Assembly (NCBI GenBank): GCA_964016885.1
Contig: OZ024741.1
Span: 240,436,001 to 240,500,000 of the forward strand
From: Eledone cirrhosa
Taxonomy: Eukaryota
DNA length: 64,000 nucleotides
Direction of reading: 5' to 3'
The position numbers and the translations under genes are program-made. The notes under the pieces are model-generated. The model saw only the letters and a program-made list of their open reading frames with translations. It was not told the origin of the DNA and made no database searches. Of this stretch, positions 11,845 through 61,104 are shown one piece after another (positions within the stretch are counted from its first letter, which is position 1; every line of letters begins with the position of its first letter).

Positions 11845-12095
11845 AAATTTGATCAAATATTACCAGTTTCAATTGATTTATCAAATATTAAAAAATGTTT
11901 CTCATATTCTGTGAGCGGTTAGAAGGTATGTGAATTTTCTGTCAAAATTTCTTCTTATATAAAGAACATATATAAGAAGAAAGTTGACAGAAAATTCCCA
12001 TATTGTCTAACTGCTCACAGAATATGAGAACAAACTTTTAAAATAATTGATAAGATTGATATATCAATTTAAACTGGTAATATTTGACAAAATTT
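11845..12095. repeat. Degenerate inverted repeat (~120-bp arms) centred near 11965
   Basis: tcaaatattaccagttt ... ttctcatattctgtgagc ... ttcttcttatata is mirrored by tataagaagaa ... gctcacagaatatgagaa ... aaactggtaatatttga. Confidence 0.85.
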
Positions 12096-12385
12096 ATTTC
12101 TTAATACTCTGTAGTTTCATCTGTGTACTCACAGGATCATCAGACAAGATTATATATATGTGTGTGTGAAAAGTAAACGAAAAACATGACAACAAACAAT
12201 GCAATACAGATATATATTAGTTTAACGTTTGATATTGTAGGAAAATATTCTTAATGTTCTGGATGCTAGTCATTAATCAGAAGGTAGAAGAAACATAGAG
12301 AAGATTGAGAAGAAGAAATGGGAAAAAGGTTTTTCTTTAGAAAAAAATATGTGCGCTTAGTCACCCATTAGATATAAATATATAT

Positions 12386-13807: not shown

Positions 13808-13850
<43 letters not shown>

Positions 13851-13853
<3 letters not shown>

Positions 13854-13988
13854 CGAAGGAAATGTGGTAAGGAACCAGGTGGACCATATAATGCACCAAA
13901 GTACTCAATACTTAGGGTAGTAGAGTGGGTAATAGGAACAAGTAAGACCCCGACGGCTGAGCTCAAGCCGTTTCGACGGCTAATTCTA
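13851..13988 (-). mobile_element. Second copy of family H1 (hammerhead 3' half), inserted in (TA)n
   Basis: Close match to 11406-11540 (taacgaagg...tactcaatacttagggtagtagagtggg...gagctcaagccgtttcgacggct). Confidence 0.8.
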
Positions 13989-14798: not shown

Positions 14799-14863
14799 TA
14801 TTTTATCTGATGAAAGCATACCATAATTTAACTTGGTGTCCTTGAAATATGTATAATGAAATA
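14799..14863 (+). ncRNA. Minimal type I hammerhead ribozyme motif (family H2)
   Basis: Stem I tattttat/atgaaata; CTGATGA at 14807; stem II aagcatacca/tggtgtcctt; GAAA at 14844; near-palindromic TATGTA; UA cleavage dinucleotide at 14854-14855. Confidence 0.75.
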
Positions 14864-15835: not shown

Positions 15836-16580
15836 ATATTCATTAGTTAAGAAAAACAAGACCACAAACTTCACAAGGGAGACATTATTAAAAGATTGTC
15901 AACATATTTTAGTTTGATGTAAGGAATGTAGAGAATAATAATAATAATAATATTAATAATAATAATGTCCGTTTACAATTGTTTCGCTACTCCATATAAT
16001 ATTTCTGGATATTTATGACTATATCATAATTGATCTGGTTCAGTTGAAAATAATTAACATATTTAAAAAACACCATAGTAAAAACCAATATATGGAACAT
16101 TATATTATGTAATATTATCCCATTATTTTAATTTATATTCCTTTGAGTTCCGATGAGCCACTCTGTTTTTTAAATATGTTAATTATTTTCAACTGAACCA
16201 GATCAATTATGATATATAGTCATCTGATCCAGAAATATTATATGGAGTAGCGAAACAATTGTAAACGGACATTATTATTATTAATATTATTATTATTATT
16301 ATTCTCTACATTCCTTACATCAAACTAAAATATGTTGACAATCTTTTAATAATGTCTCCCTTGTGAAGTTTGTGGTCTTGTTTTTCTTAACTAATGAATA
16401 TTTCCAGCTCTGCGCACCTAACTTCTGCATGAAACCAGCCACCTAGCTGCTTTCTACTGCATATTGCACATTGAGCACATGCCTTTACGCTTTGGCTTCT
16501 AACTAACTCACCAATCTCTCCTCTCTATCTCCTTTACTATCTCCATCTCTCTCTTTAAGATTGGTTACTCTTGAACTGTG
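15836..16580 (+). mobile_element. Asymmetric fold-back element (family H3): arms 15836-16072 and 16164-16401, right arm extends to ~16580
   Basis: Near-perfect ~237-bp inverted repeat with 91-bp spacer, flanked by (TA)n at both ends. Contains a hammerhead-like motif. Confidence 0.85.
16147..16266 (+). ncRNA. Hammerhead-like motif with extended stem II and variant core (CCGATGA)
   Basis: gtt-CCGATGA-gccactc...(~80 nt)...gagtagc-GAAA-CAATTG-TA-aac. Palindromic stem III CAATTG. Confidence 0.55.
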
Positions 16581-16759
16581 TATATAAATATATATATATA
16601 TATTTATATATATATATATATATAATTGTTTCTACTTTAGGCACAAGGCCAGTACATTACTGGTATTTTATAATGTATATATATAATGTATATATATATA
16701 TATCAAATGTATATATTTATATATATATATAATGTATATATAATGTATATATATATATA

Positions 16760-17973: not shown

Positions 17974-18102
17974 TTTGAGTTTATGTTGGTTGTATGCCGG
18001 CTGGAGCACTCGACGAAGTGCGCAGGTTGGTTTGGTTACTTCGGAGTAGTGTAAAATAAAGTTAAATAAAAGTCAAATGATTAAAATTTAGCTTCGTTTA
18101 TT

Positions 18103-18157
18103 ACAGCTATATATATTTCAGTGACAGCCATCTTTGGCTGTGACCTCTTCAGGCAGT
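18103..18157 (-). ncRNA. Minimal type I hammerhead ribozyme (H4, left arm)
   Basis: Reverse complement: actgc-CTGAAGA-ggtcacagcca-aaga-tggctgtcact-GAAA-TATATA-TA-gctgt (one stem I mismatch). Confidence 0.7.
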
Positions 18158-18314
18158 TTGAATTAGTATGGTATAGACAAGTACATATGTTGTTTAGGTG
18201 TATAATATTGTCAATACTCCTAGTATTGACAATATTATACACCTAATACTCCTAGTATTGACAATATTATACACCTAAACAACATATGTACTTGTCTATA
18301 CCATACTAATTCAA

Positions 18315-18369
18315 ACTGCCTGAAGAGGTCACAGCCAAAGATGGCTGTCACTGAAATATATATAGCAGT
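18315..18369 (+). ncRNA. Minimal type I hammerhead ribozyme (H4, right arm)
   Basis: Stem I actgc/gcagt; CTGAAGA at 18320; stem II acagcca/tggctgt; GAAA at 18353; palindromic TATATA; UA at 18363-18364. Confidence 0.8.
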
Positions 18370-18413
18370 AATAAACGAAGCTAAATTTTAATCATTTGAC
18401 TTTTATTTAACTT

Positions 18414-18459
<46 letters not shown>

Positions 18460-18520
18460 TAAATATATATATATATATATTTATATATATACATTATATA
18501 TATATATATATATATATATA

Positions 18521-18586
18521 GTAAAAAGTATGACCCCGACGGCAGAGCTCAAGCCGTTTCGACGGCTATTTCTGGACTCAGAAATT
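18521..18586 (-). mobile_element. Third short copy of family H1
   Basis: aaaaagtatgaccccgacggcagagctcaagccgtttcgacggctatttctggactcagaaat between (TA)n tracts. Confidence 0.8.
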
Positions 18587-18644
18587 ATATATATATATAT
18601 CATCATCATCATCATCCTCTTTGTTTAACGACTATCTTCCACGC

Positions 18645-19802: not shown

Positions 19803-20008
19803 ATATTAACAAATGGAAACTATATTTATAAAACCATATTTATTTCATTATACATATTTCAAGGACACCAAAGCAAATTATGGTGCGCTTTCATCAGATA
19901 AAATATAATATAGATCAGTTTTATAAACAAATATTGACATACCCATCTTTCAGGGTATGTCAATATTTGTTTATAAAACTGATCTATATTATATTTTATC
20001 TGATGAAA

Positions 20009-20013
<5 letters not shown>
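19803..20013 (-). mobile_element. Asymmetric fold-back element (family H2), perfect inverted repeat 19884-20013 with 8-nt loop
   Basis: 61-bp perfect arms. The long arm is the reverse complement of 14762-14900. Both ends lie in (TA)n. Confidence 0.88.
19841..19905 (-). ncRNA. Minimal type I hammerhead ribozyme (H2)
   Basis: Reverse complement: tattttat-CTGATGA-aagcgcacca-taatttgctt-tggtgtcctt-GAAA-TATGTA-TA-atgaaata. Confidence 0.75.
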
Positions 20014-26229: not shown

Positions 26230-26616
26230 ATCATTATCATCGCCATCATCATCATCATCATTATCATCATCCTTTTTCTATCTGCCTTTCCATGCTTGCA
26301 TGGGTTGGACGGGTCATTTTTTTTTTTATCACAGCCCACCTCCATACACTGCATTCCTTTGTCATCTCTTCTGCGAGGTTTAATATTTTGAGATCTGCTC
26401 CCACCCTTTTTGTTCAGGTTTTCCCTGGCCTCCCTCCACTGCATCTTTCTTCCATTAGGAGCTATTGGTATTTCTTCACCCAAAATGAACATCCTCCATG
26501 TGCATCACATGGCCAAGCCAGCATAGTTTTCTCTCTTGCACACTATGTTTGATTTCTCTTACGCTCACTCACACTCTCTCTTTCTCAACTCATTTACATT
26601 TCACCCTCCATGTACA
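26230..26616 (-). mobile_element. Decayed RTE LINE 3' fragment (distal part, left of the satellite)
   Basis: (CAT)n tail and ttccatgcttgcatgggttggacgg. The minus strand gives VQERKLCWLGHVMHME...GGRPGKT, homologous to ERRLRWYGHVMRM...GRPRKTW of the 59062 ORF. Confidence 0.8.
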
Positions 26617-29600
26617 CATCCATCGAAGTGTACTTACAAAGCATCACCCATCCATCAAAGTGTTCTTTCAAAGCATCACCCATCCATCAAAGTGTACTTA
26701 CAAAGCATCACCCATCCATCAAAGTGTTCTTACAAAGCATCACCCATCCATCAAAGTGTACTTACAAAGCATCACCTATCCATCAAAGTGTACTTACAAA
26801 GCATCACCCATCCATCAAAGTGTACTTACAAAGCATCACCCATCCATCAAAGTGTTCTTACAAAGCATCACCCATTCATCAAAGTGTACTTACAAAGCAT
26901 CACCCATCCATCAAAGTGTTCTTTCAAAGCATCACCTATCCATCAAAGTGTACTTACAAAGCATCACCCATCCATCAAAGTGTACTTACAAAGCATCACC
27001 CATCCATCAAAGTGTACTTACAAAGCATAACACATCCATCAAAGTGTACTTACAAAGCATCACCCATCCATCAAAGTGTTCTTACAAAGCATCACCCATC
27101 CATCAAAGTGTTCTTACAAAGCATCACCCATTCATCAAAGTGTACTTACAAAGCATCACCCATCCATCAAAGTGTTCTTACAAAGCATCACCCATCCATC
27201 AAAGTGTACTTACAAAGCATCACCTATCCATCAAAGTGTACTTACAAAGCATCACACATCCATCAAAGTGTACTTACAAAGCATCACCCATCCATCAAAG
27301 TGTACTTACAAAGCATAACACATCCATCAAAGTGTACTTACAAAGCATCACCCATCCATCAAAGTGTTCTTACAAAGCATCACCCATCCATCAAAGTGTT
27401 CTTACAAAGCATCACCCATTCATCAAAGTGTACTTAAAAAGCATCACCCATCCATCAAAGTGTACTTACAAAGCATCACCCATCCATCAAAGTGTACTTA
27501 CAAAGCATCACCCATCCATCAAAGTGTACTTACAAAGCATCACCCATCCATCAAAGTGTTCTTACAAAGCATCACCCATCCATCAAAGTGTACTTACAAA
27601 GCATCACCCATTCATCAAAGTGTTCTTACAAAGCATCACCCATCCATCAAAGTGTACTTACAAAGCATCAACTATCCATCAAAGTGTTCTTACAAAGCAT
27701 CACCCATCCATCAAAGTGTACTTACAACGCATCACACATCCATCAAAGTGTACTTACAAAGCATCACCTATCCATCAAAGTGTACTTACAAAGCATCACC
27801 CATCCATCAAAGTGTACTTACAAAGCATCACCTATCCATCAAAGTGTTCTTACAAAGCATCACCCATCCATCAAAGTGTACTTACAAAGGATCACCTATC
27901 CATCAAAGTGTTCTTACAAAGCATCACCCATCCATCAAAGTGTACTTACAAAGCATCACCCATCCATCAAAGTGTTCTTACAAAGCATCACCCATCCATC
28001 AAAGTGTTCTTACAAAGCATCACCCATCCATCAAAGTGTACTTACAAAGCATCACCTATCCATCAAAGTGTACTTACAAAGCATCACCCATCCATCAAGG
28101 TGTACTTACAAAGCATCACACATCCATCAAAGTGTACTTACAAAGCATCACCCATCCATCAAAGTGTTCTTACAAAGCATCACCCATCCATCAAAGTGTA
28201 CTTACAAAGCATCACCTATCCATCAAAGTGTACTTACAAAGCATCACCCATCCATCAAAGTGTACTTACAAAGCATCACCCATCCATCAAAGTGTACTTA
28301 CAAAGCATAACACATCCATCAAAGTGTACTTACAAAGCATCACCCATCCATCAAAGTGTTCTTACAAAGCATCACCCATCCATCAAAGTGTTCTTACAAA
28401 GCATCACCCATTCATCAAAGTGTACTTACAAAGCATCACCCATCCATCAAAGTGTTCTTACAAAGCATCACCCATCCGTCAAAGTGTACTTACAAAGCAT
28501 CACCTATCCATCAAAGTGTACTTACAAAGCATCACCCATCCATCAAAGTGTTCTTACAAAGCATCACCCATCCGTCAAAGTGTACTTACAAAGCATCACC
28601 TATCCATCAAAGTGTACTTACAAAGCATCACCCATCCATCAAAGTGTTCTTACAAAGCATCACCCATCCATCAAAGTGTACTTACAAAGCATCACCTATC
28701 CATCAAAGTGTTCTTACAAAGCATCACACATCCATCAAAGTGTACTTACAAAGCATCACCTATCCATCAAAGTGTACTTACAAAGCATCACCCATCCATC
28801 AAAGTGTACTTACAAAGCATCACCCATCCATCAAAGTGTACTTACAAAGCATCACCCATCCATCAAAGTGTACTTACAAAGGATCACCTATCCATCAAAC
28901 TGTTCTTACAAAGCATCACCCATCCATCAAAGTGTACTTACAAAGCATCACCTATCCATCAAAGTGTACTTACAAAGCATCACACATCCATCAAAGTGTA
29001 CTTACAAAGCATCACCCATCCATCAAAGTGTACTTACAAAGCATAACACATCCATCAAAGTGTACTTACAAAGCATCACCCATCCATCAAAGTGTTCTTA
29101 CAAAGCATCACCCATCCATCAAAGTGTTCTTACAAAGCATCACCCATTCATCAAAGTGTACTTACAAAGCATCACCCATCCATCAAAGTGTACTTACAAA
29201 GCATCACCCATCCATCAAAGTGTACTTACAAAGCATCACCCATCCATCAAAGTGTACTTACAAAGCATCACCCATCCATCAAAGTGTTCTTACAAAGCAT
29301 CACCCATCCATCAAAGTGTACTTACAAAGCATCACCCATTCATCAAAGTGTTCTTACAAAGCATCACCCATCCATCAAAGTGTACTTACAAAGCATCAAC
29401 TATCCATCAAAGTGTTCTTACAAAGCATCACCCATCCATCAAAGTGTACTTACAACGCATCACACATCCATCAAAGTGTACTTACAAAGCATCACCTATC
29501 CATCAAAGTGTACTTACAAAGCATCACCCATCCATCAAAGTGTACTTACAAGGCATCACCTATCCATCAAAGTGTTCTTACAAAGCATCACCCATCCATC

Positions 29601-32600
29601 AAAGTGTACTTACAAAGGATCACCTATCCATCAAAGTGTTCTTACAAAGCATCACCCATCCATCAAAGTGTACTTACAAAGCATCACCCATCCATCAAAG
29701 TGTTCTTACAAAGCATCACCCATCCATCAAAGTGTTCTTACAAAGCATCACCCATCCATCAAAGTGTACTTACAAAGCATCACCTATCCATCAAAGTGTA
29801 CTTACAAAGCATCACCCATCCATCAAGGTGTACTTACAAAGCATCACACATCCATCAAAGTGTACTTACAAAGCATCACCCATCCATCAAAGTGTTCTTA
29901 CAAAGCATCACCCATCCATCAAAGTGTACTTACAAAGCATCACCTATCCATCAAAGTGTACTTACAAAGCATCACCCATCCATCAAAGTGTACTTACAAA
30001 GCATCACCCATCCATCAAAGTGTACTTACAAAGCATAACACATCCATCAAAGTGTACTTACAAAGCATCACCCATCCATCAAAGTGTTCTTACAAAGCAT
30101 CACCCATCCATCAAAGTGTTCTTACAAAGCATCACCCATTCATCAAAGTGTACTTACAAAGCATCACCCATCCATCAAAGTGTTCTTACAAAGCATCACC
30201 CATCCATCAAAGTGTACTTACAAAGCATCACCTATCCATCAAAGTGTACTTACAAAGCATCACCCATCCATCAAAGTGTACTTACAAAGCATCACCCATC
30301 CATCAAAGTGTACTTACAAAGCATAACACATCCATCAAAGTGTACTTACAAAGCATCACCCATCCATCAAAGTGTTCTTACAAAGCATCACCCATCCATC
30401 AAAGTGTTCTTACAAAGCATCACCCATTCATCAAAGTGTACTTACAAAGCATCACCCATCCATCAAAGTGTTCTTACAAAGCATCACCCATCCGTCAAAG
30501 TGTACTTACAAAGCATCACCTATCCATCAAAGTGTACTTACAAAGCATCACACATCCATCAAAGTGTACTTACAAAGCATCACCCATCCATCAAAGTGTA
30601 CTTACAAAGCATAACACATCCATCAAAGTGTACTTACAAAGCATCACCCATCCATCAAAGTGTTCTTACAAAGCATCACCCATCCATCAAAGTGTTCTTA
30701 CAAAGCATCACCCATTCATCAAAGTGTACTTACAAAGCATCACCCATCCATCAAAGTGTACTTACAAAGCATCACCCATCCATCAAAGTGTACTTACAAA
30801 GCATCACCCATCCATCAAAGTGTACTTACAAAGCATCACCCATCCATCAAAGTGTTCTTACAAAGCATCACCCATCCATCAAAGTGTACTTACAAAGCAT
30901 CACCCATTCATCAAAGTGTTCTTACAAAGCATCACCCATCCATCAAAGTGTACTTACAAAGCATCAACTATCCATCAAAGTGTTCTTACAAAGCATCACC
31001 CATCCATCAAAGTGTACTTACAACGCATCACACATCCATCAAAGTGTACTTACAAAGCATCACCTATCCATCAAAGTGTACTTACAAAGCATCACCCATC
31101 CATCAAAGTGTACTTACAAGGCATCACCTATCCATCAAAGTGTTCTTACAAAGCATCACCCATCCATCAAAGTGTACTTACAAAGCATCACCTATCCATC
31201 AAAGTGTTCTTACAAAGCATCACACATCCATCAAAGTGTACTTACAAAGCATCACCTATCCATCAAAGTGTACTTACAAAGCATCACCCATCCATCAAAG
31301 TGTACTTACAAAGCATCACCCATCCATCAAAGTGTACTTACAAAGCATCACCCATCCATCAAAGTGTACTTACAAAGGATCACCTATCCATCAAACTGTT
31401 CTTACAAAGCATCACCCATCCATCAAAGTGTACTTACAAAGCATCACCTATCCATCAAAGTGTACTTACAAAGCATCACACATCCATCAAAGTGTACTTA
31501 CAAAGCATCACCCATCCATCAAAGTGTACTTACAAAGCATAACACATCCATCAAAGTGTACTTACAAAGCATCACCCATCCATCAAAGTGTTCTTACAAA
31601 GCATCACCCATCCATCAAAGTTTTCTTACAAAGCATCACCCATTCATCAAAGTGTACTTACAAAGCATCACCCATCCATCAAAGTGTACTTACAAAGCAT
31701 CACCCATCCATCAAAGTGTACTTACAAAGCATCACCCATCCATCAAAGTGTACTTACAAAGCATCACCCATCCATCAAAGTGTTCTTACAAAGCATCACC
31801 CATCCATCAAAGTGTACTTACAAAGCATCACCCATTCATCAAAGTGTTCTTACAAAGCATCACCCATCCATCAAAGTGTACTTACAAAGCATCAACTATC
31901 CATCAAAGTGTTCTTACAAAGCATCACCCATCCATCAAAGTGTACTTACAACGCATCACACATCCATCAAAGTGTACTTACAAAGCATCACCTATCCATC
32001 AAAGTGTACTTACAAAGCATCACCCATCCATCAAAGTGTACTTACAAGGCATCACCTATCCATCAAAGTGTTCTTACAAAGCATCACCCATCCATCAAAG
32101 TGTACTTACAAAGGATCACCTATCCATCAAAGTGTTCTTACAAAGCATCACCCATCCATCAAAGTGTACTTACAAAGCATCACCCATCCATCAAAGTGTT
32201 CTTACAAAGCATCACCCATCCATCAAAGTGTTCTTACAAAGCATCACCCATCCATCAAAGTGTACTTACAAAGCATCACCTATCCATCAAAGTGTACTTA
32301 CAAAGCATCACCCATCCATCAAGGTGTACTTACAAAGCATCACACATCCATCAAAGTGTACTTACAAAGCATCACCCATCCATCAAAGTGTTCTTACAAA
32401 GCATCACCCATCCATCAAAGTGTACTTACAAAGCATCACCTATCCATCAAAGTGTACTTACAAAGCATCACCCATCCATCAAAGTGTACTTACAAAGCAT
32501 CACCCATCCATCAAAGTGTACTTACAAAGCATAACACATCCATCAAAGTGTACTTACAAAGCATCACCCATCCATCAAAGTGTTCTTACAAAGCATCACC

Positions 32601-35600
32601 CATCCATCAAAGTGTTCTTACAAAGCATCACCCATTCATCAAAGTGTACTTACAAAGCATCACCCATCCATCAAAGTGTTCTTACAAAGCATCACCCATC
32701 CATCAAAGTGTACTTACAAAGCATCACCTATCCATCAAAGTGTACTTACAAAGCATCACACATCCATCAAAGTGTACTTACAAAGCATCACCCATCCATC
32801 AAAGTGTACTTACAAAGCATAACACATCCATCAAAGTGTACTTACAAAGCATCACCCATCCATCAAAGTGTTCTTACAAAGCATCACCCATCCATCAAAG
32901 TGTTCTTACAAAGCATCACCCATTCATCAAAGTGTACTTACAAAGCATCACCCATCCATCAAAGTGTACTTACAAAGCATCACCCATCCATCAAAGTGTA
33001 CTTACAAAGCATCACCCATCCATCAAAGTGTACTTACAAAGCATCACCCATCCATCAAAGTGTTCTTACAAAGCATCACCCATCCATCAAAGTGTACTTA
33101 CAAAGCATCACCCATTCATCAAAGTGTTCTTACAAAGCATCACCCATCCATCAAAGTGTACTTACAAAGCATCAACTATCCATCAAAGTGTTCTTACAAA
33201 GCATCACCCATCCATCAAAGTGTACTTACAACGCATCACACATCCATCAAAGTGTACTTACAAAGCATCACCTATCCATCAAAGTGTACTTACAAAGCAT
33301 CACCCATCCATCAAAGTGTACTTACAAGGCATCACCTATCCATCAAAGTGTTCTTACAAAGCATCACCCATCCATCAAAGTGTACTTACAAAGCATCACC
33401 TATCCATCAAAGTGTTCTTACAAAGCATCACACATCCATCAAAGTGTACTTACAAAGCATCACCTATCCATCAAAGTGTACTTACAAAGCATCACCCATC
33501 CATCAAAGTGTACTTACAAAGCATCACCCATCCATCAAAGTGTACTTACAAAGCATCACCCATCCATCAAAGTGTACTTACAAAGGATCACCTATCCATC
33601 AAACTGTTCTTACAAAGCATCACCCATCCATCAAAGTGTACTTACAAAGCATCACCTATCCATCAAAGTGTACTTACAAAGCATCACACATCCATCAAAG
33701 TGTACTTACAAAGCATCACCCATCCATCAAAGTGTACTTACAAAGCATAACACATCCATCAAAGTGTACTTACAAGGCATCACCTATCCATCAAAGTGTT
33801 CTTACAAAGCATCACCCATCCATCAAAGTGTACTTACAAAGGATCACCTATCCATCAAAGTGTTCTTACAAAGCATCACCCATCCATCAAAGTGTACTTA
33901 CAAAGCATCACCCATCCATCAAAGTGTTCTTACAAAGCATCACCCATCCATCAAAGTGTTCTTACAAAGCATCACCCATCCATCAAAGTGTACTTACAAA
34001 GCATCACCTATCCATCAAAGTGTACTTACAAAGCATCACCCATCCATCAAGGTGTACTTACAAAGCATCACACATCCATCAAAGTGTACATACAAAGCAT
34101 CACCCATCCATCAAAGTGTTCTTACAAAGCATCACCCATCCATCAAAGTGTACTTACAAAGCATCACCTATCCATCAAAGTGTACTTACAAAGCATCACC
34201 CATCCATCAAAGTGTACTTACAAAGCATCACCCATCGATCAAAGTGTACTTACAAAGCATAACACATCCATCAAAGTGTACTTACAAAGCATCACCCATC
34301 CATCAAAGTGTTCTTACAAAGCATCACCCATCCATCAAAGTGTTCTTACAAAGCATCACCCATTCATCAAAGTGTACTTACAAAGCATCACCCATCCATC
34401 AAAGTGTTCTTACAAAGCATCACCCATCCATCAAAGTGTACTTACAAAGCATCACCTATCCATCAAAGTGTACTTACAAAGCATCACACATCCATCAAAG
34501 TGTACTTACAAAGCATCACCCATCCATCAAAGTGTACTTACAAAGCATAACACATCCATCAAAGTGTACTTACAAAGCATCACCCATCCATCAAAGTGTT
34601 CTTACAAAGCATCACCCATCCATCAAAGTGTTCTTACAAAGCATCACCCATTCATCAAAGTGTACTTACAAAGCATCACCCATCCATCAAAGTGTACTTA
34701 CAAAGCATCACCCATCCATCAAAGTGTACTTACAAAGCATCACCCATCCATCAAAGTGTACTTACAAAGCATCACCCATCCATCAAAGTGTACTTACAAA
34801 GCATCACCCATTCATCAAAGTGTTCTTACAAAGCATCACCCATCCATCAAAGTGTACTTACAAAGCATCAACTATCCATCAAAGTGTTCTTACAAAGCAT
34901 CACCCATCCATCAAAGTGTACTTACAACGCATCACACATCCATCAAAGTGTACTTACAAAGCATCACCTATCCATCAAAGTGTACTTACAAAGCATCACC
35001 CATCCATCAAAGTGTACTTACAAGGCATCACCTATCCATCAAAGTGTTCTTACAAAGCATCACCCATCCATCAAAGTGTACTTACAAAGCATCACCTATC
35101 CATCAAAGTGTTCTTACAAAGCATCACACATCCATCAAAGTGTACTTACAAAGCATCACCTATCCATCAAAGTGTACTTACAAAGCATCACCCATCCATC
35201 AAAGTGTACTTACAAAGCATCACCCATCCATCAAAGTGTACTTACAAAGCATCACCCATCCATCAAAGTGTACTTACAAAGGATCACCTATCCATCAAAC
35301 TGTTCTTACAAAGCATCACCCATCCATCAAAGTGTACTTACAAAGCATCACCTATCCATCAAAGTGTACTTACAAAGCATCACACATCCATCAAAGTGTA
35401 CTTACAAAGCATCACCCATCCATCAAAGTGTACTTACAAAGCATAACACATCCATCAAAGTGTACTTACAAAGCATCACCCATCCATCAAAGTGTTCTTA
35501 CAAAGCATCACCCATCCATCAAAGTGTTCTTACAAAGCATCACCCATTCATCAAAGTGTACTTACAAAGCATCACCCATCCATCAAAGTGTACTTACAAA

Positions 35601-38600
35601 GCATCACCCATCCATCAAAGTGTACTTACAAAGCATCACCCATCCATCAAAGTGTACTTACAAAGCATCACCCATCCATCAAAGTGTTCTTACAAAGCAT
35701 CACCCATCCATCAAAGTGTACTTACAAAGCATCACCCATTCATCAAAGTGTTCTTACAAAGCATCACCCATCCATCAAAGTGTACTTACAAAGCATCAAC
35801 TATCCATCAAAGTGTTCTTACAAAGCATCACCCATCCATCAAAGTGTACTTACAAAGCATCACACATCCATCAAAGTGTACTTACAAAGCATCACCTATC
35901 CATCAAAGTGTACTTACAAAGCATCACCCATCCATCAAAGTGTACTTACAAGGCATCACCTATCCATCAAAGTGTTCTTACAAAGCATCACCCATCCATC
36001 AAAGTGTACTTACAAAGGATCACCTATCCATCAAAGTGTTCTTACAAAGCATCACCCATCCATCAAAGTGTACTTACAAAGCATCACCCATCCATCAAAG
36101 TGTTCTTACAAAGCATCACCCATCCATCAAAGTGTTCTTACAAAGCATCACCCATCCATCAAAGTGTACTTACAAAGCATCACCTATCCATCAAAGTGTA
36201 CTTACAAAGCATCACCCATCCATCAAGGTGTACTTACAAAGCATCACACATCCATCAAAGTGTACTTACAAAGCATCACCCATCCATCAAAGTGTTCTTA
36301 CAAAGCATCACCCATCCATCAAAGTGTACTTACAAAGCATCACCTATCCATCAAAGTGTACTTACAAAGCATCACCCATCCATCAAAGTGTACTTACAAA
36401 GCATCACCCATCCATCAAAGTGTACTTACAAAGCATAACACATCCATCAAAGTGTACTTACAAAGCATCACCCATCCATCAAAGTGTTCTTACAAAGCAT
36501 CACCCATCCATCAAAGTGTTCTTACAAAGCATCACCCATTCATCAAAGTGTACTTACAAAGCATCACCCATCCATCAAAGTGTTCTTACAAAGCATCACC
36601 CATCCATCAAAGTGTACTTACAAAGCATCACCTATCCATCAAAGTGTACTTACAAAGCATCACACATCCATCAAAGTGTACTTACAAAGCATCACCCATC
36701 CATCAAAGTGTACTTACAAAGCATAACACATCCATCAAAGTGTACTTACAAAGCATCACCCATCCATCAAAGTGTTCTTACAAAGCATCACCCATCCATC
36801 AAAGTGTTCTTACAAAGCATCACCCATCCATCAAAGTGTACTTACAACGCATCACACATCCATCAAAGTGTACTTACAAAGCATCACCTATCCATCAAAG
36901 TGTACTTACAAAGCATCACCCATCCATCAAAGTGTACTTACAAGGCATCACCTATCCATCAAAGTGTTCTTACAAAGCATCACCCATCCATCAAAGTGTA
37001 CTTACAAAGCATCACCTATCCATCAAAGTGTTCTTACAAAGCATCACACATCCATCAAAGTGTACTTACAAAGCATCACCTATCCATCAAAGTGTACTTA
37101 CAAAGCATCACCCATCCATCAAAGTGTACTTACAAAGCATCACCCATCCATCAAAGTGTACTTACAAAGCATCACCCATCCATCAAAGTGTACTTACAAA
37201 GGATCACCTATCCATCAAAGTGTTCTTACAAAGCATCACCCATCCATCAAAGTGTACTTACAAAGCATCACCTATCCATCAAAGTGTACTTACAAAGCAT
37301 CACACATCCATCAAAGTGTACTTACAAAGCATCACCCATCCATCAAAGTGTACTTACAAAGCATAACACATCCATCAAAGTGTACTTACAAAGCATCACC
37401 CATCCATCAAAGTGTTCTTACAAAGCATCACCCATCCATCAAAGTGTTCTTACAAAGCATCACCCATTCATCAAAGTGTACTTACAAAGCATCACCCATC
37501 CATCAAAGTGTACTTACAAAGCATCACCCATCCATCAAAGTGTACTTACAAAGCATCACCCATCCATCAAAGTGTACTTACAAAGCATCACCCATCCATC
37601 AAAGTGTTCTTACAAAGCATCACCCATCCATCAAAGTGTACTTACAAAGCATCACCCATTCATCAAAGTGTTCTTACAAAGCATCACCCATCCATCAAAG
37701 TGTACTTACAAAGCATCAACTATCCATCAAAGTGTTCTTACAAAGCATCACCCATCCATCAAAGTGTACTTACAACGCATCACACATCCATCAAAGTGTA
37801 CTTACAAAGCATCACCTATCCATCAAAGTGTACTTACAAAGCATCACCCATCCATCAAAGTGTACTTACAAGGCATCACCTATCCATCAAAGTGTTCTTA
37901 CAAAGCATCACCCATCCATCAAAGTGTACTTACAAAGGATCACCTATCCATCAAAGTGTTCTTACAAAGCATCACCCATCCATCAAAGTGTACTTACAAA
38001 GCATCACCCATCCATCAAAGTGTTCTTACAAAGCATCACCCATCCATCAAAGTGTTCTTACAAAGCATCACCCATCCATCAAAGTGTACTTACAAAGCAT
38101 CACCTATCCATCAAAGTGTACTTACAAAGCATCACCCATCCATCAAGGTGTACTTACAAAGCATCACACATCCATCAAAGTGTACTTACAAAGCATCACC
38201 CATCCATCAAAGTGTTCTTACAAAGCATCACCCATCCATCAAAGTGTACTTACAAAGCATCACCTATCCATCAAAGTGTACTTACAAAGCATCACCCATC
38301 CATCAAAGTGTACTTACAAAGCATCACCCATCCATCAAAGTGTACTTACAAAGCATAACACATCCATCAAAGTGTACTTACAAAGCATCACCCATCCATC
38401 AAAGTGTTCTTACAAAGCATCACCCATCCATCAAAGTGTTCTTACAAAGCATCACCCATTCATCAAAGTGTACTTACAAAGCATCACCCATCCATCAAAG
38501 TGTTCTTACAAAGCATCACCCATCCATCAAAGTGTACTTACAAAGCATCACCTATCCATCAAAGTGTACTTACAAAGCATCACACATCCATCAAAGTGTA

Positions 38601-40011
38601 CTTACAAAGCATCACCCATCCATCAAAGTGTACTTACAAAGCATAACACATCCATCAAAGTGTACTTACAAAGCATCACCCATCCATCAAAGTGTTCTTA
38701 CAAAGCATCACCCATCCATCAAAGTGTTCTTACAAAGCATCACCCATTCATCAAAGTGTACTTACAAAGCATCACCCATCCATCAAAGTGTACTTACAAA
38801 GCATCACCCATCCATCAAAGTGTACTTACAAAGCATCACCCATCCATCAAAGTGTACTTACAAAGCATCACCCATCCATCAAAGTGTTCTTACAAAGCAT
38901 CACCCATCCATCAAAGTGTACTTACAAAGCATCACCCATTCATCAAAGTGTTCTTACAAAGCATCACCCATCCATCAAAGTGTACTTACAAAGCATCAAC
39001 TATCCATCAAAGTGTTCTTACAAAGCATCACCCATCCATCAAAGTGTACTTACAACGCATCACACATCCATCAAAGTGTACTTACAAAGCATCACCTATC
39101 CATCAAAGTGTACTTACAAAGCATCACCCATCCATCAAAGTGTACTTACAAGGCATCACCTATCCATCAAAGTGTTCTTACAAAGCATCACCCATCCATC
39201 AAAGTGTACTTACAAAGCATCACCTATCCATCAAAGTGTTCTTACAAAGCATCACACATCCATCAAAGTGTACTTACAAAGCATCACCTATCCATCAAAG
39301 TGTACTTACAAAGCATCACCCATCCATCAAAGTGTACTTACAAAGCATCACCCATCCATCAAAGTGTACTTACAAAGCATCACCCATCCATCAAAGTGTA
39401 CTTACAAAGGATCACCTATCCATTAAAGTGTTCTTACAAAGCATCACCCATCCATCAAAGTGTACTTACAAAGCATCACCCATCCATCAAAGTGTTCTTA
39501 CAAAGCATCACCCATCCATCAAAGTGTTCTTACAAAGCATCACCCATCCATCAAAGTGTACTTACAAAGCATCACCTATCCATCAAAGTGTACTTACAAA
39601 GCATCACCCATCCATCAAAGTGTTCTTACAAAGCATCACACATCCATCAAAGTGTTCTTACAAAGCATCACCCATCCATCAAAGTGTACTTACAAAGGAT
39701 CACCTATCCATCAAAGTGTACTTACAAAGCATCACCTATCCATCAAAGTGTTCTTACAAAGCATCACCCATCCATCGAAGTGTACTTACAAAGCATCACC
39801 CATCCATCGAAGTGTTCTTACAAAGCATCACCCATCCATCAAAGTGTTCTTACAAAGCATCACACATCCATCAAAGTGTACTTACAAAGCATCACCCATC
39901 CATCAAAGTGTACTTACAAAGCATCACCCATCCATCAAAGTGTTCTTACAAAGCATCACCTATCCATCAAAGTGTACTTACAAAGCATCACCCATCTATC
40001 GAAGTGTACTT
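26617..40011. repeat. 32-bp satellite, consensus AAAGTGTACTTACAAAGCATCACCCATCCATC, ~418 copies with higher-order repeats
   Basis: Constant 32-bp period with no visible indels. Diagnostic variants recur at spacings of 288, 928 and 992 bp (stop positions in the ORF track). Confidence 0.99.
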
Positions 40012-40125
40012 CATTTCTCCCCAGTCTTCTTATACTCTATACATTTACTGCCTATGTTTCACTTCCATGCAACACCATACCTCACAACAGGCATGGAACA
40101 ATTTAAAGAATTTGTCACTGTTGAG
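40012..40125 (-). mobile_element. Decayed RTE LINE fragment (proximal part, right of the satellite)
   Basis: The minus strand reads LHGSET*AVNV*SIRRLGRNE, homologous to MLHGSETWALCAEDIRRLERNE. Confidence 0.8.
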
Positions 40126-40379
40126 AGAATATTTAGAAGCTTTCCTATTAATGATATGGTAATTGTTACTTGTAGCCTACTGTGGGTCTCAGCTACACAT
40201 TCTGTATTTATACACATATAACATTATCATTTACTTCGGTTCCTAGAGCATTTCTCACTATATACTTTAATTAATTAGCAACAAAAGTGCTAATTATATC
40301 CATTTCTGAATAATACTAGGAGTGAATTGGTATATATAACCATCAAATACACGTTCCCTTGTTTGGATGATATACACAC

Positions 40380-40420
40380 CTTCTGATGAGGGTCCAATTC
40401 GATCTGAAAATCGATTAAAG
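40380..40420 (+). ncRNA. Minimal type I hammerhead ribozyme motif (solo)
   Basis: ctt-CTGATGA-gggtc-caattc-gatct-GAAA-ATCGAT-TA-aag. Palindromic stem III ATCGAT. Confidence 0.72.
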
Positions 40421-41349
40421 ATTTTTGTCATTTTTTCAATTTACAGGGAAATTAGTATTTTCTGGCATGTTAACACACCTCCAAATTAGATATGCGTATA
40501 TATGTATACACGTTGGTGCAGTCTGGGTTACACATACTGTATTTATAAAGATATAACTTTAATATGGTTATATATTAAGTGACATCTGTGGTACATTGTG
40601 GATAGTGATATAGTTATTTATTAACTGATAACTGTGCTATACTGTGGGGGAGAGTGTGATATAGTTTTATATATGAACAGTTATCTGTAGCATACTGGGA
40701 GAATGGTTAAATGAATTATTATTAAAGTATAGACATTTGAAAAGAATAAAAATAGCAACATCTGAGAACAGCATCAGGAAGAACATATAAAGAATATAAT
40801 CTGGCTAGAGACAAGATTATGAAATTTCTTTGTGAAAGGAGACTCTATATTCTAGATTGTTTTTCATATATAATGAAAACTTACAGTGACAAAAGAAATG
40901 TATCTTGTAAAGGTGAAAATATCATTGAATCTTTTGCTAGACAGAATATATTGGATTAAAAGACTATGAAATAACACCAATTAGATGTTTTGCCTTTAGC
41001 TACCACACCAGACCAATATCTGATACCATTGGGATATTATGAATTTATTATATTTCAGTAAAGTCATATCTTATTGGTGAGACTCAGAGATACAAATTGA
41101 ATACCTTGATATCAAGCTTACAGATTTTAAATATTAATGAAATAAGGCATAATAAATACACCTGCTATTTCATATGTATACACCTCTCATACACACATAC
41201 ATATTTAGATACATGCGTACATATACATACATGCATACATACGTATTGATATATAGAGATACACATATACATACATATATAGAGATACACACATACACAC
41301 ATATATAGAGATACACACACACATACATGCATATATAGAGATATACAGA

Positions 41350-42255: not shown

Positions 42256-43005
42256 GTACATATGTGACGAATTGACAGTGTCATTAGAAAGTTTGATACA
42301 ATGATTTACAGTATCCATTTCAGCTCTCTGCACTTTCTGAATTCAAATCCTGCCAAGGTCAACTTTGCTTTTCATCCCTTTGAGGTTGATAAAAAAACCA
42401 CACCCTGTACTAGATCAATTTTTTTCTCTAAATCTCCTTTTCACTTTCTTCAATCTCCTTCTTGGGAAGAAACCAGCTGGGGAGGGGATGAACTCTGCCA
42501 GGTTGAAAATGTCCAAGACACCCCTACAACTCCATTAGGAATCCATCAACCCATCCATCCGTACATACATACCATAGGTATGACAAAACAAATGTCTTTG
42601 TAAATGGCCAAAAACATTTGTTAAAGTTAAAAGAAGTACAATTGTAATGTGAAGTAGCAATGCCCTCTCCTGAGGTGTGCAAAAATAACTAAAATATTAT
42701 CGACATCTGTCACATTATATATATATATATACATATAATATATATACATATATACATATATATACATATAATATATATATATGTATACATATATATATAT
42801 ACATATATACATATATATACATATAATATATATATATATACATATATATACATATAATATATATAATATATATATAAATATATATATAATATGTATATAT
42901 ATATTATATATATATATAATATGTATATATATAATATGTAAATATATATTATATATATATAATATGTAATATATAAGATCAAAAGATGGTTAAAAGAATT
43001 CCATG

Positions 43006-43076
43006 TATTTTATTATGCGCATTTCAAAAACAAATATCATCATGCAATAACATTTGTGTTTTCGTCAGATAAAATA
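43006..43076 (-). ncRNA. Minimal type I hammerhead ribozyme (H5, left arm)
   Basis: Reverse complement of the 43178-43248 motif with one stem II difference. Confidence 0.8.
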
Positions 43077-43177
43077 GGGAGACATGATATGAAGGTTAAA
43101 ACACACTTGTGAATAGTGCAGTTTTAAATCAACTGCACTATTCACAAGTGTTTTTTAACCTTCATATCATGTCTCCC

Positions 43178-43248
43178 TATTTTATCTGACGAAAACGCAA
43201 ATGTTATTGCATGATGATATTTGTTTTTGAAATGCGCATAATAAAATA
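43178..43248 (+). ncRNA. Minimal type I hammerhead ribozyme (H5, right arm)
   Basis: Perfect 8-bp stem I tattttat/ataaaata; CTGACGA at 43186; stem II gcaaatgttat/atgatatttgt; GAAA at 43229; palindromic TGCGCA; UA at 43239-43240. Confidence 0.85.
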
Positions 43249-43431
43249 CATGGAACTCTTTTAACCATCTTTTGATCTTATATATTATTATGTATACTCC
43301 AGTCCTACAAACTGTAGAGTGCTACTTATCCGATATCTGCATTGCTTTATTGTACTACAATAAAACTCACCTCCTACATATATATAATATGTATATATAT
43401 ATAATATATATATATATACATATATAATAAG

Positions 43432-43731: not shown

Positions 43732-44068
43732 AGAAAAATACAGGAGAAGGAGGACATCTATGGATCATTGATGAGGAGTTTGCAAATCCAGTATCCAAGA
43801 TACACCTTCAGCTTCATACCCATCATTATTGGAGCTATGGGTTATATACCAACCCGTTTGGACCAAAGTATGACTGAACTTGGATTTACGGACAAAGAGC
43901 GCAGCTCCCTAATTCATAGTCTACAAATGGCTGCGATAGCTGGCACCTTCAAAATTTGCAAAACATTCTTGCGATTCAAGAGATGACAATTTCTTTTCTT
44001 TTACAACCTTGCTACCAGGAAGGTGGCCGGTCAAAAAAATATACTCGAAATTAAGAGAAAGAGATAGC
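43732..44068 (+). mobile_element. 3' end of a non-LTR retrotransposon with restriction-like endonuclease (R4/Dong/NeSL-type), 5'-truncated
   Basis: Peptide EKEDIYGSL...IPIIIGAMGYIP...LG...LQMAAIAGTFKICKTFL matches the C-terminal pattern of RLE domains. Short 3' UTR. (CATA)n on both sides. Confidence 0.7.
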
Positions 44069-52904: not shown

Positions 52905-54675
52905 GTTCCATCTGACAGGGATGTCCTCTCTCCTCCATTCTGTACGTACTGACTCTAGAGCCACTACTGCGGAAGTTGGAGCTGCTGCAGCGCATCCCGT
53001 TGGAACCAGGACTGTGGAAAGCAGCATCAGCTTATGCTGATGGCATGACAGTATTGGTGTCGGAAACCTCAGAAATTGGGGCGATCGGCAACTTACTGCA
53101 AGAATACGAAAGGCTCACAGGAGCAAAACTGAACCTGGACAAGTCCGTCGGTTTGCAACTCGGAACGTGGAGAGGCAAACCGATGCAGTCCAACAGTGTA
53201 ATCGGACGCTGGACGGATGGACCGGTGAAATTGCTTGGGGTCTGGTTCGGTCCAGACCTCCAGGTGGAGAAAAACTGGAACAAGGTCACGGCCAAGGTAT
53301 TTGCGCTCACCCAGAAGTGGGCAGAGTGCAAACTATCCTTGAAAGGTCGAGCAGAAGTGGCGAATACTTTCATAGCATCTGTCATCTATGTTCACGGGGA
53401 CAAGGCATTACTGTCAAGCTTGACAGTAATGCCTTGTCCCCGTGAACACGTCATCAAGATGGAACACATGCTCTTCTGGTTCCTTTGGAAGAATCAGGCT
53501 CCACTGGTGAGGAGATCCGTCTGCTGTCAGCACCCTTCCAATGGAGGGCTGGGAATGCCGTGACTGATGATGCGGAAATATATGCTAAGACTACGGCATC
53601 TACAGGTATTCCCGACCGACCAACCGGTGTGGGCACTGTTTGTGAGACAGGCCTTCCCCCAACTTGTCTCACTGACGGAGCTGCAGTCCTGGGTCAAGTG
53701 GAGACCAAAGAAGATGGGCACCTGGTACATTGAATGTGCTCAGGCGCTCACAGTCCTCTGTCAAGCAAGCACAGCAATCAGTGGAGACTCCACTTCAACA
53801 TTCTATAGAGGGTTAGTACGTCACAAGGGTGACGACGTGCTCGCAGAGACTCCGGGCATCGAAGACGACGAACTCACCTGTCTGTTTGATAGGACTTTCT
53901 GCCTGGGACCTATGGACAACTTCCAGAGGTCCCTGGCCTGGCAGTGCTACCGAGGAGCTCTACCAGTTCGAGACAAGATCTACAGGCACGGATGCCCCGG
54001 CAGGGATCCTTCCAAGAGGACGTGTCCAAGATGCAAGCAGGACATTGAAACCGTCTTGCACGCAATTGTACACTGCCCAGGCGTAACCGACCTGTGGAAC
54101 TACGGAGAACAACTGCTGTTGTGTATGGGACAAATCAAGTTGACTACCGAGTCCATAGTAAGGATCAAACCGCCAACCTCTTTCAAAAATGAAAGAGAGG
54201 TGGTTTTCCTCTGTATAGTGGCTATGGTGAAAGAGGTTATATGTTGGACGAGATTGAGAGGACTGAGAACAGATGCCTTTATCTCCGGACAACAACTCAT
54301 TCCCTTCTTTAGGTACCACTTTAGAAGAAGAATCAGAGTGGAGAGAGAGGCACTGCACCCCAGTAAATTTACTGAAAGGTGGGTGAATGTGGCAAAAATG
54401 GCCCGAGTGATTGGGCCTTCTCTGTATATAAACCTGTAGGTTGAAGAAGAGGGCAAAAGGAAGAAGGGAGCACTTGCACAACACGCTCCTGAAGTTGAGG
54501 GTTGTTCTATCGATGCGGTATTAAACAACCCATTTGTGGCGCCTCCCCCCTATTGGGGATTTCGATTGTTTAATTTGTTTGTTTCAATATTTTTACACGA
54601 TTGTATGTAAAATCCCTGGCATGTGTCTTTGTTGTGTCCCCTTTTCTTGTGCACCCTTGTGGCAAATAAAGAAAT
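52905..54675 (+). mobile_element. 5'-truncated Tx1/L1-clade LINE: RT C-terminal half plus CCHC zinc knuckle, pseudogenised
   Basis: QGCPLSP, AYADG (YADD decayed), GAKLNLDKS, LSLKGR, GGLGMP, in-frame TGA at 53561, CPRC-X7-H-X4-C. 3' UTR ends cccttgtggcaaataaagaaa. Confidence 0.9.
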
Positions 54676-58833: not shown

Positions 58834-58851
58834 CATATATATATATATATA

Positions 58852-61104
58852 TCTTGGAAGCTAAAGGACCCCATAGCCAGAAATAAATTTCAAAGCATAT
58901 TACTTGACGCTTTCGACAGTAAGGAAGAGCAATTAGAGTCGTATAATATAGAGGAACAGTGGGAATTCCTGAGAGCAAACCTGCTGACGGCGGCAGACGA
59001 AGTCTGTGGCTGGAGCAGGCCTGTAGGTAGGAGGAGAGTAACATGGTGGTGGAACAGTAAGGTGGAGGAGTCAATTAAGGCCAAAAAGCAGGCTTGGAAA
59101 GTATGGCGGGATGGGGGAAGTAGAGAAGACTATCAAGTGGCCAGGAGGGAAGCTAGGAGACAAGTGTACTTCGCAAGAAGGGAAGCAGAGGAAAGAAAGT
59201 TCAAGCATGTTCTACAACGTGAGGACCAAAAACGTGAGGTGTTCAGGATTGCCAGGCAATGTGTCAAGGAAAACCGTGATATTGTCGGGGAGAAGTGTGT
59301 ACTTAACGATGATGGCATACTTGCCATCACCGACGCTGATAAGAAGGTAGCTTGGAAGTGTCACTACGAAAGGCTTCTAAATGAGGAGAACAAATGGGAG
59401 AAAGACAGTCTCCCCCAGATCGATCCAATAGAGGGACCAGCAGTGTTAGTTGAAGGTAGTATAATAAGTAAGGCAATCAAAGATATGAAGACGGGTAAGG
59501 CGGCTGGGCCTTCGGAAATAGTTGCTGAGATGCTGAAGGCATCTGGTTCGGTGGGACACACCATGGTCACCCGGATAGTTAACCAAGTCGTACAGAATGG
59601 GGTTGTTCCGAAGGAATGGCGTAGCAGCATCATCGTTAACTGCTATAAGGGAAAAGGAGATGCCCTAGATAGGAGTAACTATAGAGGCATTAAATTAATC
59701 GACCAGGTCATGAAGGTCACGGAAAAAGTAATAGCGCAACTAATCAGAGAGAGAATTGATCTAGATGAAATGCAGTTCGGGTTTGTATCAGGCAAAAGTA
59801 CCACAGACGCTCTTTTCATTGTACGACAACTACAGGAGAAGTACCTAGCTAAAAGTAAACCCCTATACTTAGCTTTCGGCGACTTGGAGAAAGCCTTCGA
59901 CAGAGTCCCCCGTTCCATTATCTGGTGGTCTCTTAGAAAACTAGGTGTTGACGAATGGCTTGTGAGAGCTATACAAGCCATGTATAAAGAAACAGTCAGT
60001 AAGGTTAGAATTAACAACGAATATAGTGAAGAGTTTAGCGTAAAAGTTGGTGTCCATCAGGGCTCTGTTCTTAGCCCCCTACTATTTATTATTGCCCTTC
60101 AGGCTATAACAGAGGAGTTCAAGACCGGCTGCCCATGGGAACTCCTATACGCAGATGATCTAACGCTCATAGCTGAATCAATGACCGAACTAGAGAAGAA
60201 ATTCCAAACGTGGAAGCACGGCCTAGAATCAAAAGGCCTTAAAATTAACCTGGCTAAGACTAAAGTTCTAGTTTGTAGGAAAGAAAATAAGGCGGCGGTC
60301 CCATCGGGGAAATGGCCATGCTCAGTGTGTAGGAAAGGCGTAGGTAGAAACTCCATTTTATGTCCCAAATGCAAAGTATGGGTGCATAAAAGATGTAGTG
60401 GGATCACAGGTAAGCTAACTAAGAACATAGATTTTACATGTGGCCGGTGCTCTGGTGCAATAAGTAGCAGCAAGTGCCCACAAAATACTAGCTCCTTCAA
60501 CTGCGCAGAGGGTTCTATAGAAATAGTGGACAGCTTCCGTTATCTGGGTGACAAAATCAGCAGTGGGGGAGGGTGCTCTGAAAGTACAGTAGCTAGAGTC
60601 AGAACTGGATGGAAAAAGTTCAGAGAGCTTATACCACTATTAGCCGCTAGAGGGTTCTCCCTAAAAATGAAAGGCAGGTTATACGATGCCTGCATACGAA
60701 CAGCAATGCTGCATGGCAGTGAGACCTGGGCATTGTGTGCAGAGGATATACGCAGACTAGAGAGGAACGAAGCTTGCATGCTTCGCTGGATGTACAATAG
60801 TAATATACGTGAACGGCAAAGCATAAACGAACTAAGGAAAAAATTAGAAATAAGAGGGATCAGATGTTGTTTACTCGAGAGAAGGCTACGTTGGTACGGT
60901 CACGTGATGCGCATGAAAGACGACAGCTGTATAACAAAGTGCAGGGCAATAAAGATAGACGGTAGCCACGGAGTAGGCAGACCCAGAAAAACATGGGACG
61001 AGCTGATAAATTCCGACCTCACACGCTTACACCTCTCCAAGACAATGTCACTGGACCGAGACCTTTGGCGGTACTCAGTAATAGAGAAGACCCGCCTTAC
61101 CTAA
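58852..61104 (+). CDS. RTE ORF2 fragment: linker, reverse transcriptase, PHD-type finger and C-terminal domain (APE domain lost by 5' truncation)
   Basis: The frame is open upstream of the 59062 call (SWKLKDP...TWWWN). RT motifs KAAGPS, YRGIKL, QFGF, DLEKAFD, GVHQGSVLSP, LLYADD, FRYLG, RLRWYGHV. Confidence 0.9.
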   Translation, partial: SWKLKDPIARNKFQSILLDAFDSKEEQLESYNIEEQWEFLRANLLTAADEVCGWSRPVGRRRVTWWWNSKVEESIKAKKQAWKVWRDGGSREDYQVARREARRQVYFARREAEERKFKHVLQREDQKREVFRIARQCVKENRDIVGEKCVLNDDGILAITDADKKVAWKCHYERLLNEENKWEKDSLPQIDPIEGPAVLVEGSIISKAIKDMKTGKAAGPSEIVAEMLKASGSVGHTMVTRIVNQVVQNGVVPKEWRSSIIVNCYKGKGDALDRSNYRGIKLIDQVMKVTEKVIAQLIRERIDLDEMQFGFVSGKSTTDALFIVRQLQEKYLAKSKPLYLAFGDLEKAFDRVPRSIIWWSLRKLGVDEWLVRAIQAMYKETVSKVRINNEYSEEFSVKVGVHQGSVLSPLLFIIALQAITEEFKTGCPWELLYADDLTLIAESMTELEKKFQTWKHGLESKGLKINLAKTKVLVCRKENKAAVPSGKWPCSVCRKGVGRNSILCPKCKVWVHKRCSGITGKLTKNIDFTCGRCSGAISSSKCPQNTSSFNCAEGSIEIVDSFRYLGDKISSGGGCSESTVARVRTGWKKFRELIPLLAARGFSLKMKGRLYDACIRTAMLHGSETWALCAEDIRRLERNEACMLRWMYNSNIRERQSINELRKKLEIRGIRCCLLERRLRWYGHVMRMKDDSCITKCRAIKIDGSHGVGRPRKTWDELINSDLTRLHLSKTMSLDRDLWRYSVIEKTRLT

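Follow-up and report, generated by a model that had tools for sequence, protein, structure and literature searches.

The fold-back at 42967-43287, in the 64,000-nucleotide stretch of DNA analysed here (the window), is a hairpin of 321 nt. Its short arm (42967-43123, minus strand, 157 bp) is a 5′-truncated copy of a hammerhead region, lacks a tail, and stops at the first of two 3′ ends of its repeat family. Its long arm (43131-43287, plus strand, 157 bp) is a second 5′-truncated copy, placed head to head with the first, and a 7-nt loop, TTAAATC (43124-43130, minus strand), lies between them. Both arms are sense when read outward from the loop, and they are 98% alike, with 3 mismatches (43102/43152, 43057/43197, and 42998/43256). 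The right arm continues into a 90-nt tail (43288-43377, plus strand), which contains a small stem-loop and an A/C-rich stretch at its end and stops at the family's second 3′ end; the left arm has no such tail, so that the ends are asymmetric. The left flank (42716-42966) is a (TA)n-rich target microsatellite, and the right flank (43378-43429) is also (TA)n-rich. A possible 14-nt target-site duplication (42953-42966) is repeated at 43378-43391, with the same 14-16 letters at both ends, but this motif is present 5 times in 42700-43430, and a target-site duplication is therefore indistinguishable from the microsatellite itself. The minimum free energy (MFE) of the full hairpin, -259.4 kcal/mol, corresponds to z -42 and was not reached by any of 100 shuffles. 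A preliminary description, made from the letters, had reported a hairpin of ~320 bp with arms of ~157 bp and a 7-nt loop, which we recovered; the span that it gave, 42967-43380, took in the 90-nt extension and left it unexplained.

Each arm contains a minimal type I hammerhead, with the core CUGANGA, GAAA, and UH and stems I and II all present. The plus-strand motif lies at 43178-43248, with a predicted cut 3′ of 43240, and the minus-strand motif at 43006-43076, with its core starting at 43068 and a predicted cut after 43014. On the plus strand, stem I pairs 43178-43185 with 43241-43248 (8 of 8 pairs Watson-Crick), and the core consists of CUGACGA (43186-43192) and GAAA (43229-43232), followed by UGCGCA and UA. 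The complete hammerhead that had been claimed for each arm, with its 8-bp stem I, CUGACGA, and GAAA-UGCGCA-UA, was found on both strands. Stem II (43193-43228) has 15 bp, arranged as 3 bp, a C.U mismatch at the fourth position, and 12 bp including 4 G.U pairs. The base of stem II is an A-U pair in place of the usual G10.1-C11.1; 43193 A>G and 43228 T>C are both among the variants listed for other family copies. The best register of the motif has no unpaired base between positions 9 and 10.1. Stem III is the six-base palindrome AUGCGCAU, which is of the dimer type: its intermolecular self-duplex has a predicted energy of -10.5 kcal/mol, and a monomer stem III of 2 bp is unfavourable, costing +2.9 kcal/mol. 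A strict minimal-hammerhead descriptor, tuned after the motifs had been seen, gave 5 matches in the 50,100 non-tandem bases of the window and none in any of 300 shuffles. The fold of the isolated ribozyme is no more stable than its shuffles (z -1.4). No Rfam family reached its gathering threshold in the window, and no hammerhead match was found around the locus up to E 10. The best of 37 sub-threshold Rfam matches around the locus were to microRNAs, and this identity was rejected because such scores are generic to long stems.

To place the locus within its family, four sequencing runs were compared with the right arm and tail (259 bases). Matches were found in 4023 contigs of X1 (organism A), 60 of X4 (organism B), and 35 of X7 (organism D), and in 5311 raw reads of X20, a RAD-seq run labelled organism A, so that all four runs were positive. 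The window itself may come from the source of X1, and read counts in X20 are not copy counts, as it is a RAD-seq run. Only 286 of the 5311 X20 reads reach a likeness of 99%. The family is a high-copy, moderately diverged repeat. BLAST found no further copy of the 42967-43377 element in the 64-kb window, and pattern scans for relatives with their flanks gave none in metagenome contigs, prokaryote genomes, or viral contigs.

Copies continue upstream of 43131 in at least 45 contigs of X1, at least 2 of X7, and at least 272 reads of X20 (22 of 189 loose-end rows listed). In X1 and X20, the last 10 letters of these loose ends before 43131 are those of the window's minus strand across the loop; the loose ends reach only 30 letters upstream. 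The loop is thus natural family sequence belonging to the left copy, and the left and right copies share 3 letters, a microhomology at the fold (43131-43133). Downstream, the family runs into (TA)n at two places: a first 3′ end near 43283-43288 (at least 282 X20 reads and 13 X1 contigs among the rows listed) and a second behind 43379 (at least 1228 X20 reads and 12 X1 contigs among the rows listed). At the 42967-43377 locus, the short arm stops at the first of these 3′ ends and the long arm at the second. Three of the 5 joints listed connect opposite strands, from 43131 or 43132 to 43286, 43347, and 43241, and none of the 5 reproduces the fold of 42967-43287. The X20 depth is consistent with an uncovered loop, with 578 implied in the first bin versus 665 in the next. 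No head-to-tail joint is among the 5 listed, although a unit longer than 259 bases would escape. In one X4 contig, the loose letters at 43232 mirror the sequence past the stem III palindrome, as if a fold-back had formed in stem III. In X20, the read ends of 1141 molecules are stacked at 43231; this was rejected as a cleavage signal, as it goes with the variant 43234 G>T, and is probably a restriction site of the RAD library.

Fifteen of the 40 variant rows listed (of 75) fall inside the ribozyme, at 13 positions. Nine of these positions are in stems I and II. At eight of them the variant base still pairs without any second change; at 43228 pairing requires a change of the partner as well, and that change is also among the listed rows. 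In the same rows, all 4 G.U pairs vary to Watson-Crick pairs, versus 4 of the 19 other pairs varying at all (Fisher p 0.008). The remaining ribozyme variants are one at the free N7, two in the loop, and one (43234) that breaks stem III and comes mostly from one RAD read pile. None of the 11 invariant core bases is hit among the 40 of 75 rows, which says little on its own because part of the rows is listed and only ~1.6 hits would be expected by chance by our estimate. The pair-preserving variation suggests that the ribozyme fold looks selected in the family's source lineages. Both arms at the locus carry the minority alleles C at 43190 and G at 43203, and these shared alleles, together with the 98% likeness of the arms, point to an origin of both arms in one event.

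Four other fold-backs of the window, B, C, D, and F, carry hammerhead families unrelated to that of 42967-43287, or parts of such families. Fold-back B (18052-18420, motifs on both strands) has intact CUGAAGA cores in both arms with one stem I mismatch in the left arm, a stem III of UAUAUA, and an 80-nt tail on the left arm. Fold-back C (19884-20013) has its right arm cut in stem II. Fold-back D (15836-16401) has one degenerate core, in one arm only, with a stem II enclosing ~95 nt; its loop is 91 nt, and a long one-sided extension follows the right arm (whole feature 15836-16590). Fold-back F (11485-11603) is folded in the stem II loop, has lost the CUGA half in both arms, and has an 80-nt tail. 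In B, D, and F, one arm is longer than the other, as at 42967-43287, and all four fold-backs touch (TA)n. Their folds fall before or inside the ribozyme; the distance from fold to helix I is 47 nt at the 42967-43287 locus, 55 nt in B, and 39 nt in C. A common layout with differing sequences and differing fold positions argues for a by-product of copying and against a regulatory design that has been kept.

Several further structures lie in the same window. Single hammerhead-type copies were found at 14807 and 40383, and the lone motif at 40378-40421 has a palindromic AUCGAU stem III, a stem I of 3 bp only, and no fold-back found nearby. The copies at 11405-11603, 13850-13987, and 18511-18590 form one family that retains only the 3′ half of the hammerhead, with a longer, monomer-type stem III, and one of them folds in the stem II loop. 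An older fold-back at 11845-12152, with arms 77% alike, carries a degraded hammerhead-like motif on the minus strand that faces the fold, a geometry opposite to that of the others. The fold of B is doubled, with a 15-nt palindrome present twice and a short inverted piece between. Read by eye, three families have a C.C or C.U at the fourth stem II position, after three pairs (43193-43228, 18327-18352, 19890-19861, and 14814-14843); this mismatch is possibly a conserved tertiary contact.

The coding context of the window was assessed by a Pfam scan of 149 of its 342 filtered reading frames. These 149 frames include no reverse transcriptase (RT) of a Penelope-like element (PLE), no GIY-YIG frame, and no host gene context. 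RT matches among them are confined to 52.9-54.4 kb and 58.8-61.1 kb, and both regions look like unrelated LINEs: 58834-61101 encodes a 756-aa RT with a PHD finger inside, and 52916-54436 an RT with a zf-RVT piece. A short piece at 43780-43986, which has no Pfam match, presumably resembles the end of a restriction-like-endonuclease LINE. Weak matches to Pif1_2B, DUF5852, Zf_IFT121, and SK_channel were below cut-offs and were dropped. A 30-codon frame in the tail was rejected as a gene: its ATG varies within the family (43292), and its sole match (E 7.7e-4), to a repetitive 195-aa protein, was judged to be chance. That protein, P0002, has a repeated 11-residue word with variable spacers and looks to us like a putative translated CRISPR array. 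A 13.6-kb tandem array at 26490-40100 has a 32-bp unit in more than 400 copies ~96% alike, with a strong strand skew and a higher-order periodicity.

We consider the locus very probably to be a PLE insertion unit, that is, a head-to-head pair of truncated high-copy hammerhead repeats in (TA)n, with the hairpin a likely by-product of copying. The assignment of the family to PLEs is made by its architecture and stays conditional on it. With 411 bp and no reading frame for a PLE reverse transcriptase or GIY-YIG, the hammerhead fold-back at 42967-43377 is a truncated product at most and not an autonomous PLE. In the proposed mechanism, a PLE endonuclease would nick both strands of the TA tract, and reverse transcription would begin at two internal start sites, one for the tail-less arm and one for the arm that bears the 90-nt tail. 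The two cDNAs would each end some 50-60 nt upstream of the ribozyme and would be joined via the 3-nt microhomology by twin priming, which is known from L1. Two cDNAs from different start sites would leave a tail on one arm only. A close alternative would be snap-back self-priming of one cDNA, which accounts for the loop just as well, although the first arm would then have to be trimmed later. The terminal repeat of the parent element would carry the hammerhead as cargo, and cutting there would require a dimer or the help of a protein; at the 42967-43377 locus the hammerhead has no likely role. A search for literature on twin priming or inversion in Penelope found, by title and abstract start, none on the PLE mechanism.

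A more specific version of this reading is tentative, and we hold it to be rather unlikely. It takes the fold-backs as leader-only twin-primed PLE insertions, whose outer ends would be RT start sites, whose folds would mark run-off at the 5′ end of the RNA, and whose rarer joints would start at the ribozyme cut. In three unrelated families the folds lie 39-55 nt before helix I, and they may mark run-off at the transcription start, because in Drosophila virilis Penelope the intron, which extends to helix I (PMC4209133), begins 46 nt downstream of the transcription start (PMC2377424); the putative spliced leader of that element, at 46 nt, is close to these distances in length. The Penelope transcription start lies in the upstream pLTR (PMC6765202), and copies that continue further upstream do not contradict the run-off idea, which takes D. 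virilis Penelope as its one reference element. Among the 5 joints listed, one (43132/43241) starts exactly at the base that follows the predicted cut; it is seen in 5 reads with 3 starts and has no shared letters. The chance of such a coincidence is ~1% (three joints, ~250 places), for an agreement noticed after the fact and probably at a single locus. In Anolis PAc, no RNA-seq ends were found at the ribozyme cut (PMC11167929). If the leader-only reading were true, counting junctions across the genome would provide the first evidence at that scale that minimal PLE hammerheads cleave in vivo, and the origin of the inverted pLTR would be explained.

The arms are long and inverted, the element is short, and its targets are TA, as in a fold-back or MITE-type DNA transposon whose inverted repeat is a captured hammerhead region and whose entire hairpin is the unit that inserts into TA sites. 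We regard such a transposon as highly unlikely, as the 90-nt tail on one side only makes the ends asymmetric, the family continues upstream of the fold with neither a listed joint nor the depth supporting the loop in other copies, and the layout recurs, with other fold positions, in several hammerhead families of unrelated sequence. The repeated unit at 42967-43377 is not a whole hairpin with symmetric ends.

Short, non-coding, high-copy repeats with a type I hammerhead are also known as non-LTR retrozymes, which are non-autonomous tandem repeats with circular RNA; they have been described in molluscs (PMC7229834) and as derivatives of PLEs (bioRxiv 10.64898/2026.07.22.740005). A fragment of a retrozyme inverted on insertion is nevertheless very improbable here: the locus is a single head-to-head pair instead of head-to-tail tandem units, no head-to-tail copy is present at it or among the 5 joints listed (where units above 259 bases would escape), and the one-sided tail and the two 3′ ends are marks of PLEs.

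The preliminary description had gone further and proposed a regulatory role for the antisense arm. Its statement that read-through RNA from each strand would contain one ribozyme together with the antisense of that ribozyme, with the ribozyme off, agrees with the head-to-head arms and with folding. Its competition between dsRNA and the catalytic fold is not supported, as imposing the catalytic fold takes 99.9 kcal/mol when the full hairpin is present versus 1.7-2.3 kcal/mol without the antisense arm. With the arms in head-to-head order, transcription of either strand reaches the antisense arm before the ribozyme, and in growing plus-strand transcripts 13 of 13, 53 of 53, and 71 of 71 ribozyme bases are paired to it (MFE structures only). 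A gap of ~100 kcal/mol combined with this order would produce a dead state, not a switch. Most likely, the ribozyme is predicted to be locked off in read-through RNA by accident and is not a designed switch. Catalysis had also been said to need the absence of the antisense arm, and the energy cost does fall to the lower value when the arm is removed; that absence is likely insufficient, since the palindromic stem III is of the dimer type and the monomer from S. mansoni is inactive. A single S. mansoni minimal PLE hammerhead gave no detectable cleavage and dimers cleaved weakly (PMC4209133), and activity of the Anolis PLE ribozyme needed the element's protein (PMC11167929). Free ribozyme strands would arise only if transcription were to start near the loop.

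We therefore give very little credence to a built-in self-inhibition, in which the antisense arm would be kept so that the ribozyme stays off until a transcript without that arm appears. Such a design would fit the motifs being intact in both arms at 42967-43287 and likewise in fold-back B, and the folds of 42967-43287, B, and C lying just upstream of the ribozyme. It is opposed by the energy gap and the antisense-first order, which leave no switchable state, and by the other copies of the family, which lack this fold. Folds in other families of the window fall inside the ribozyme and lose it (F without the CUGA half in both arms, D with a core in one arm only, C with its right arm cut in stem II), so that the fold is not kept to guard the ribozyme; the dimer requirement would already hold a lone ribozyme off (PMC4209133). 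Among the papers listed by a literature search, none described a self-inhibited PLE ribozyme in its title or the start of its abstract.

Near-perfect palindromes can arise during library preparation, and no listed contig spans the loop, yet an assembly or long-read fold-back artefact is extremely unlikely, as the arms differ at 3 sites, two of which (43152 and 43197) are among the variable sites listed for the family, both ends coincide with natural 3′ ends of other copies, and the arms of other fold-backs in the window have drifted apart.

The locus as such is ordinary, and its value is that it preserves a legible record of Penelope-type copying. In a genome where several families have left thousands of short junctions, both the origin of inverted copies and in vivo hammerhead cleavage become countable. 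An element of this type can be mistaken for a MITE or a microRNA precursor, and long dsRNA from its read-through copies would be available to editing or small-RNA pathways.

Among the closest known systems is the insertion unit of endonuclease-bearing (EN+) PLEs, in which an inverted 5′-truncated copy lies next to the 5′ end and a tail is often present at one end only (PMC8557442). The locus shares with the published accounts (PMC8557442, PMC3846280, PMC2377424) the head-to-head inverted truncated copy, the palindromic junction, the optional tail at one end, the hammerhead near the 3′ end, and the (TA)n target that hides a target-site duplication. In Adineta vaga Pen2a, head-to-head inverted pLTRs overlap at a palindromic junction, which has been read as self-priming (PMC3846280). 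The 42967-43377 element differs in having no ORF and in that both copies end about 50 nt before the ribozyme. Tails are 80-90 nt in the window's fold-backs versus 30-40 bp in the published PLEs, and the overlap at the fold is 3 nt versus 15 in the published unit. A bias for TA microsatellites is described in Naiad and Neptune, and Naiads are without canonical hammerheads (PMC8557442); from target and motif, a Neptune-like target bias with a canonical core would fit as to clade. The repeat landscape of the window resembles that of octopus; an expansion of PLEs has been reported in Octopus vulgaris by a paper that does not use the word ribozyme in its main text (PMC13282606).

As ribozymes, the motifs resemble the minimal PLE hammerheads (PMC4209133), which are likewise type I with a long helix II and a palindromic stem III and loop 3, and which occur in many sequence families per genome. 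Dual minimal hammerheads on opposite strands, 100-700 bp apart, have been read as truncated PLEs (PMC4209133), and the cores at the locus, 118 bp apart, fall inside that range. Helix I has 8 bp and helix II 15 bp here, versus 4-5 and 7-8 bp in S. mansoni (PMC4209133). The G10.1-C11.1 pair and the unpaired base between 9 and 10.1 are common, not universal, in PLE hammerheads (PMC4209133), and the A-U at the base of stem II and the recurrent C.Y mismatch at the fourth position set the window's hammerheads apart from those described there. Retrozymes of animal genomes (PMC7229834) are likewise short repeats, non-coding and with a type I hammerhead, but they are head-to-tail tandems that give circular RNA, whereas 42967-43377 is a head-to-head pair. 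In Anolis Poseidon PAc (PMC11167929), as proposed for 42967-43377, the tail is the interval between two internal RT start sites, an A/C-rich stem-loop lies at the start site, and the target is AT-rich DNA, of which the PLE protein nicks both strands and extends them. The inverted copy is not modelled in the available text on PAc. The ORF of PAc starts in stem II, where 42967-43377 has no such open frame.
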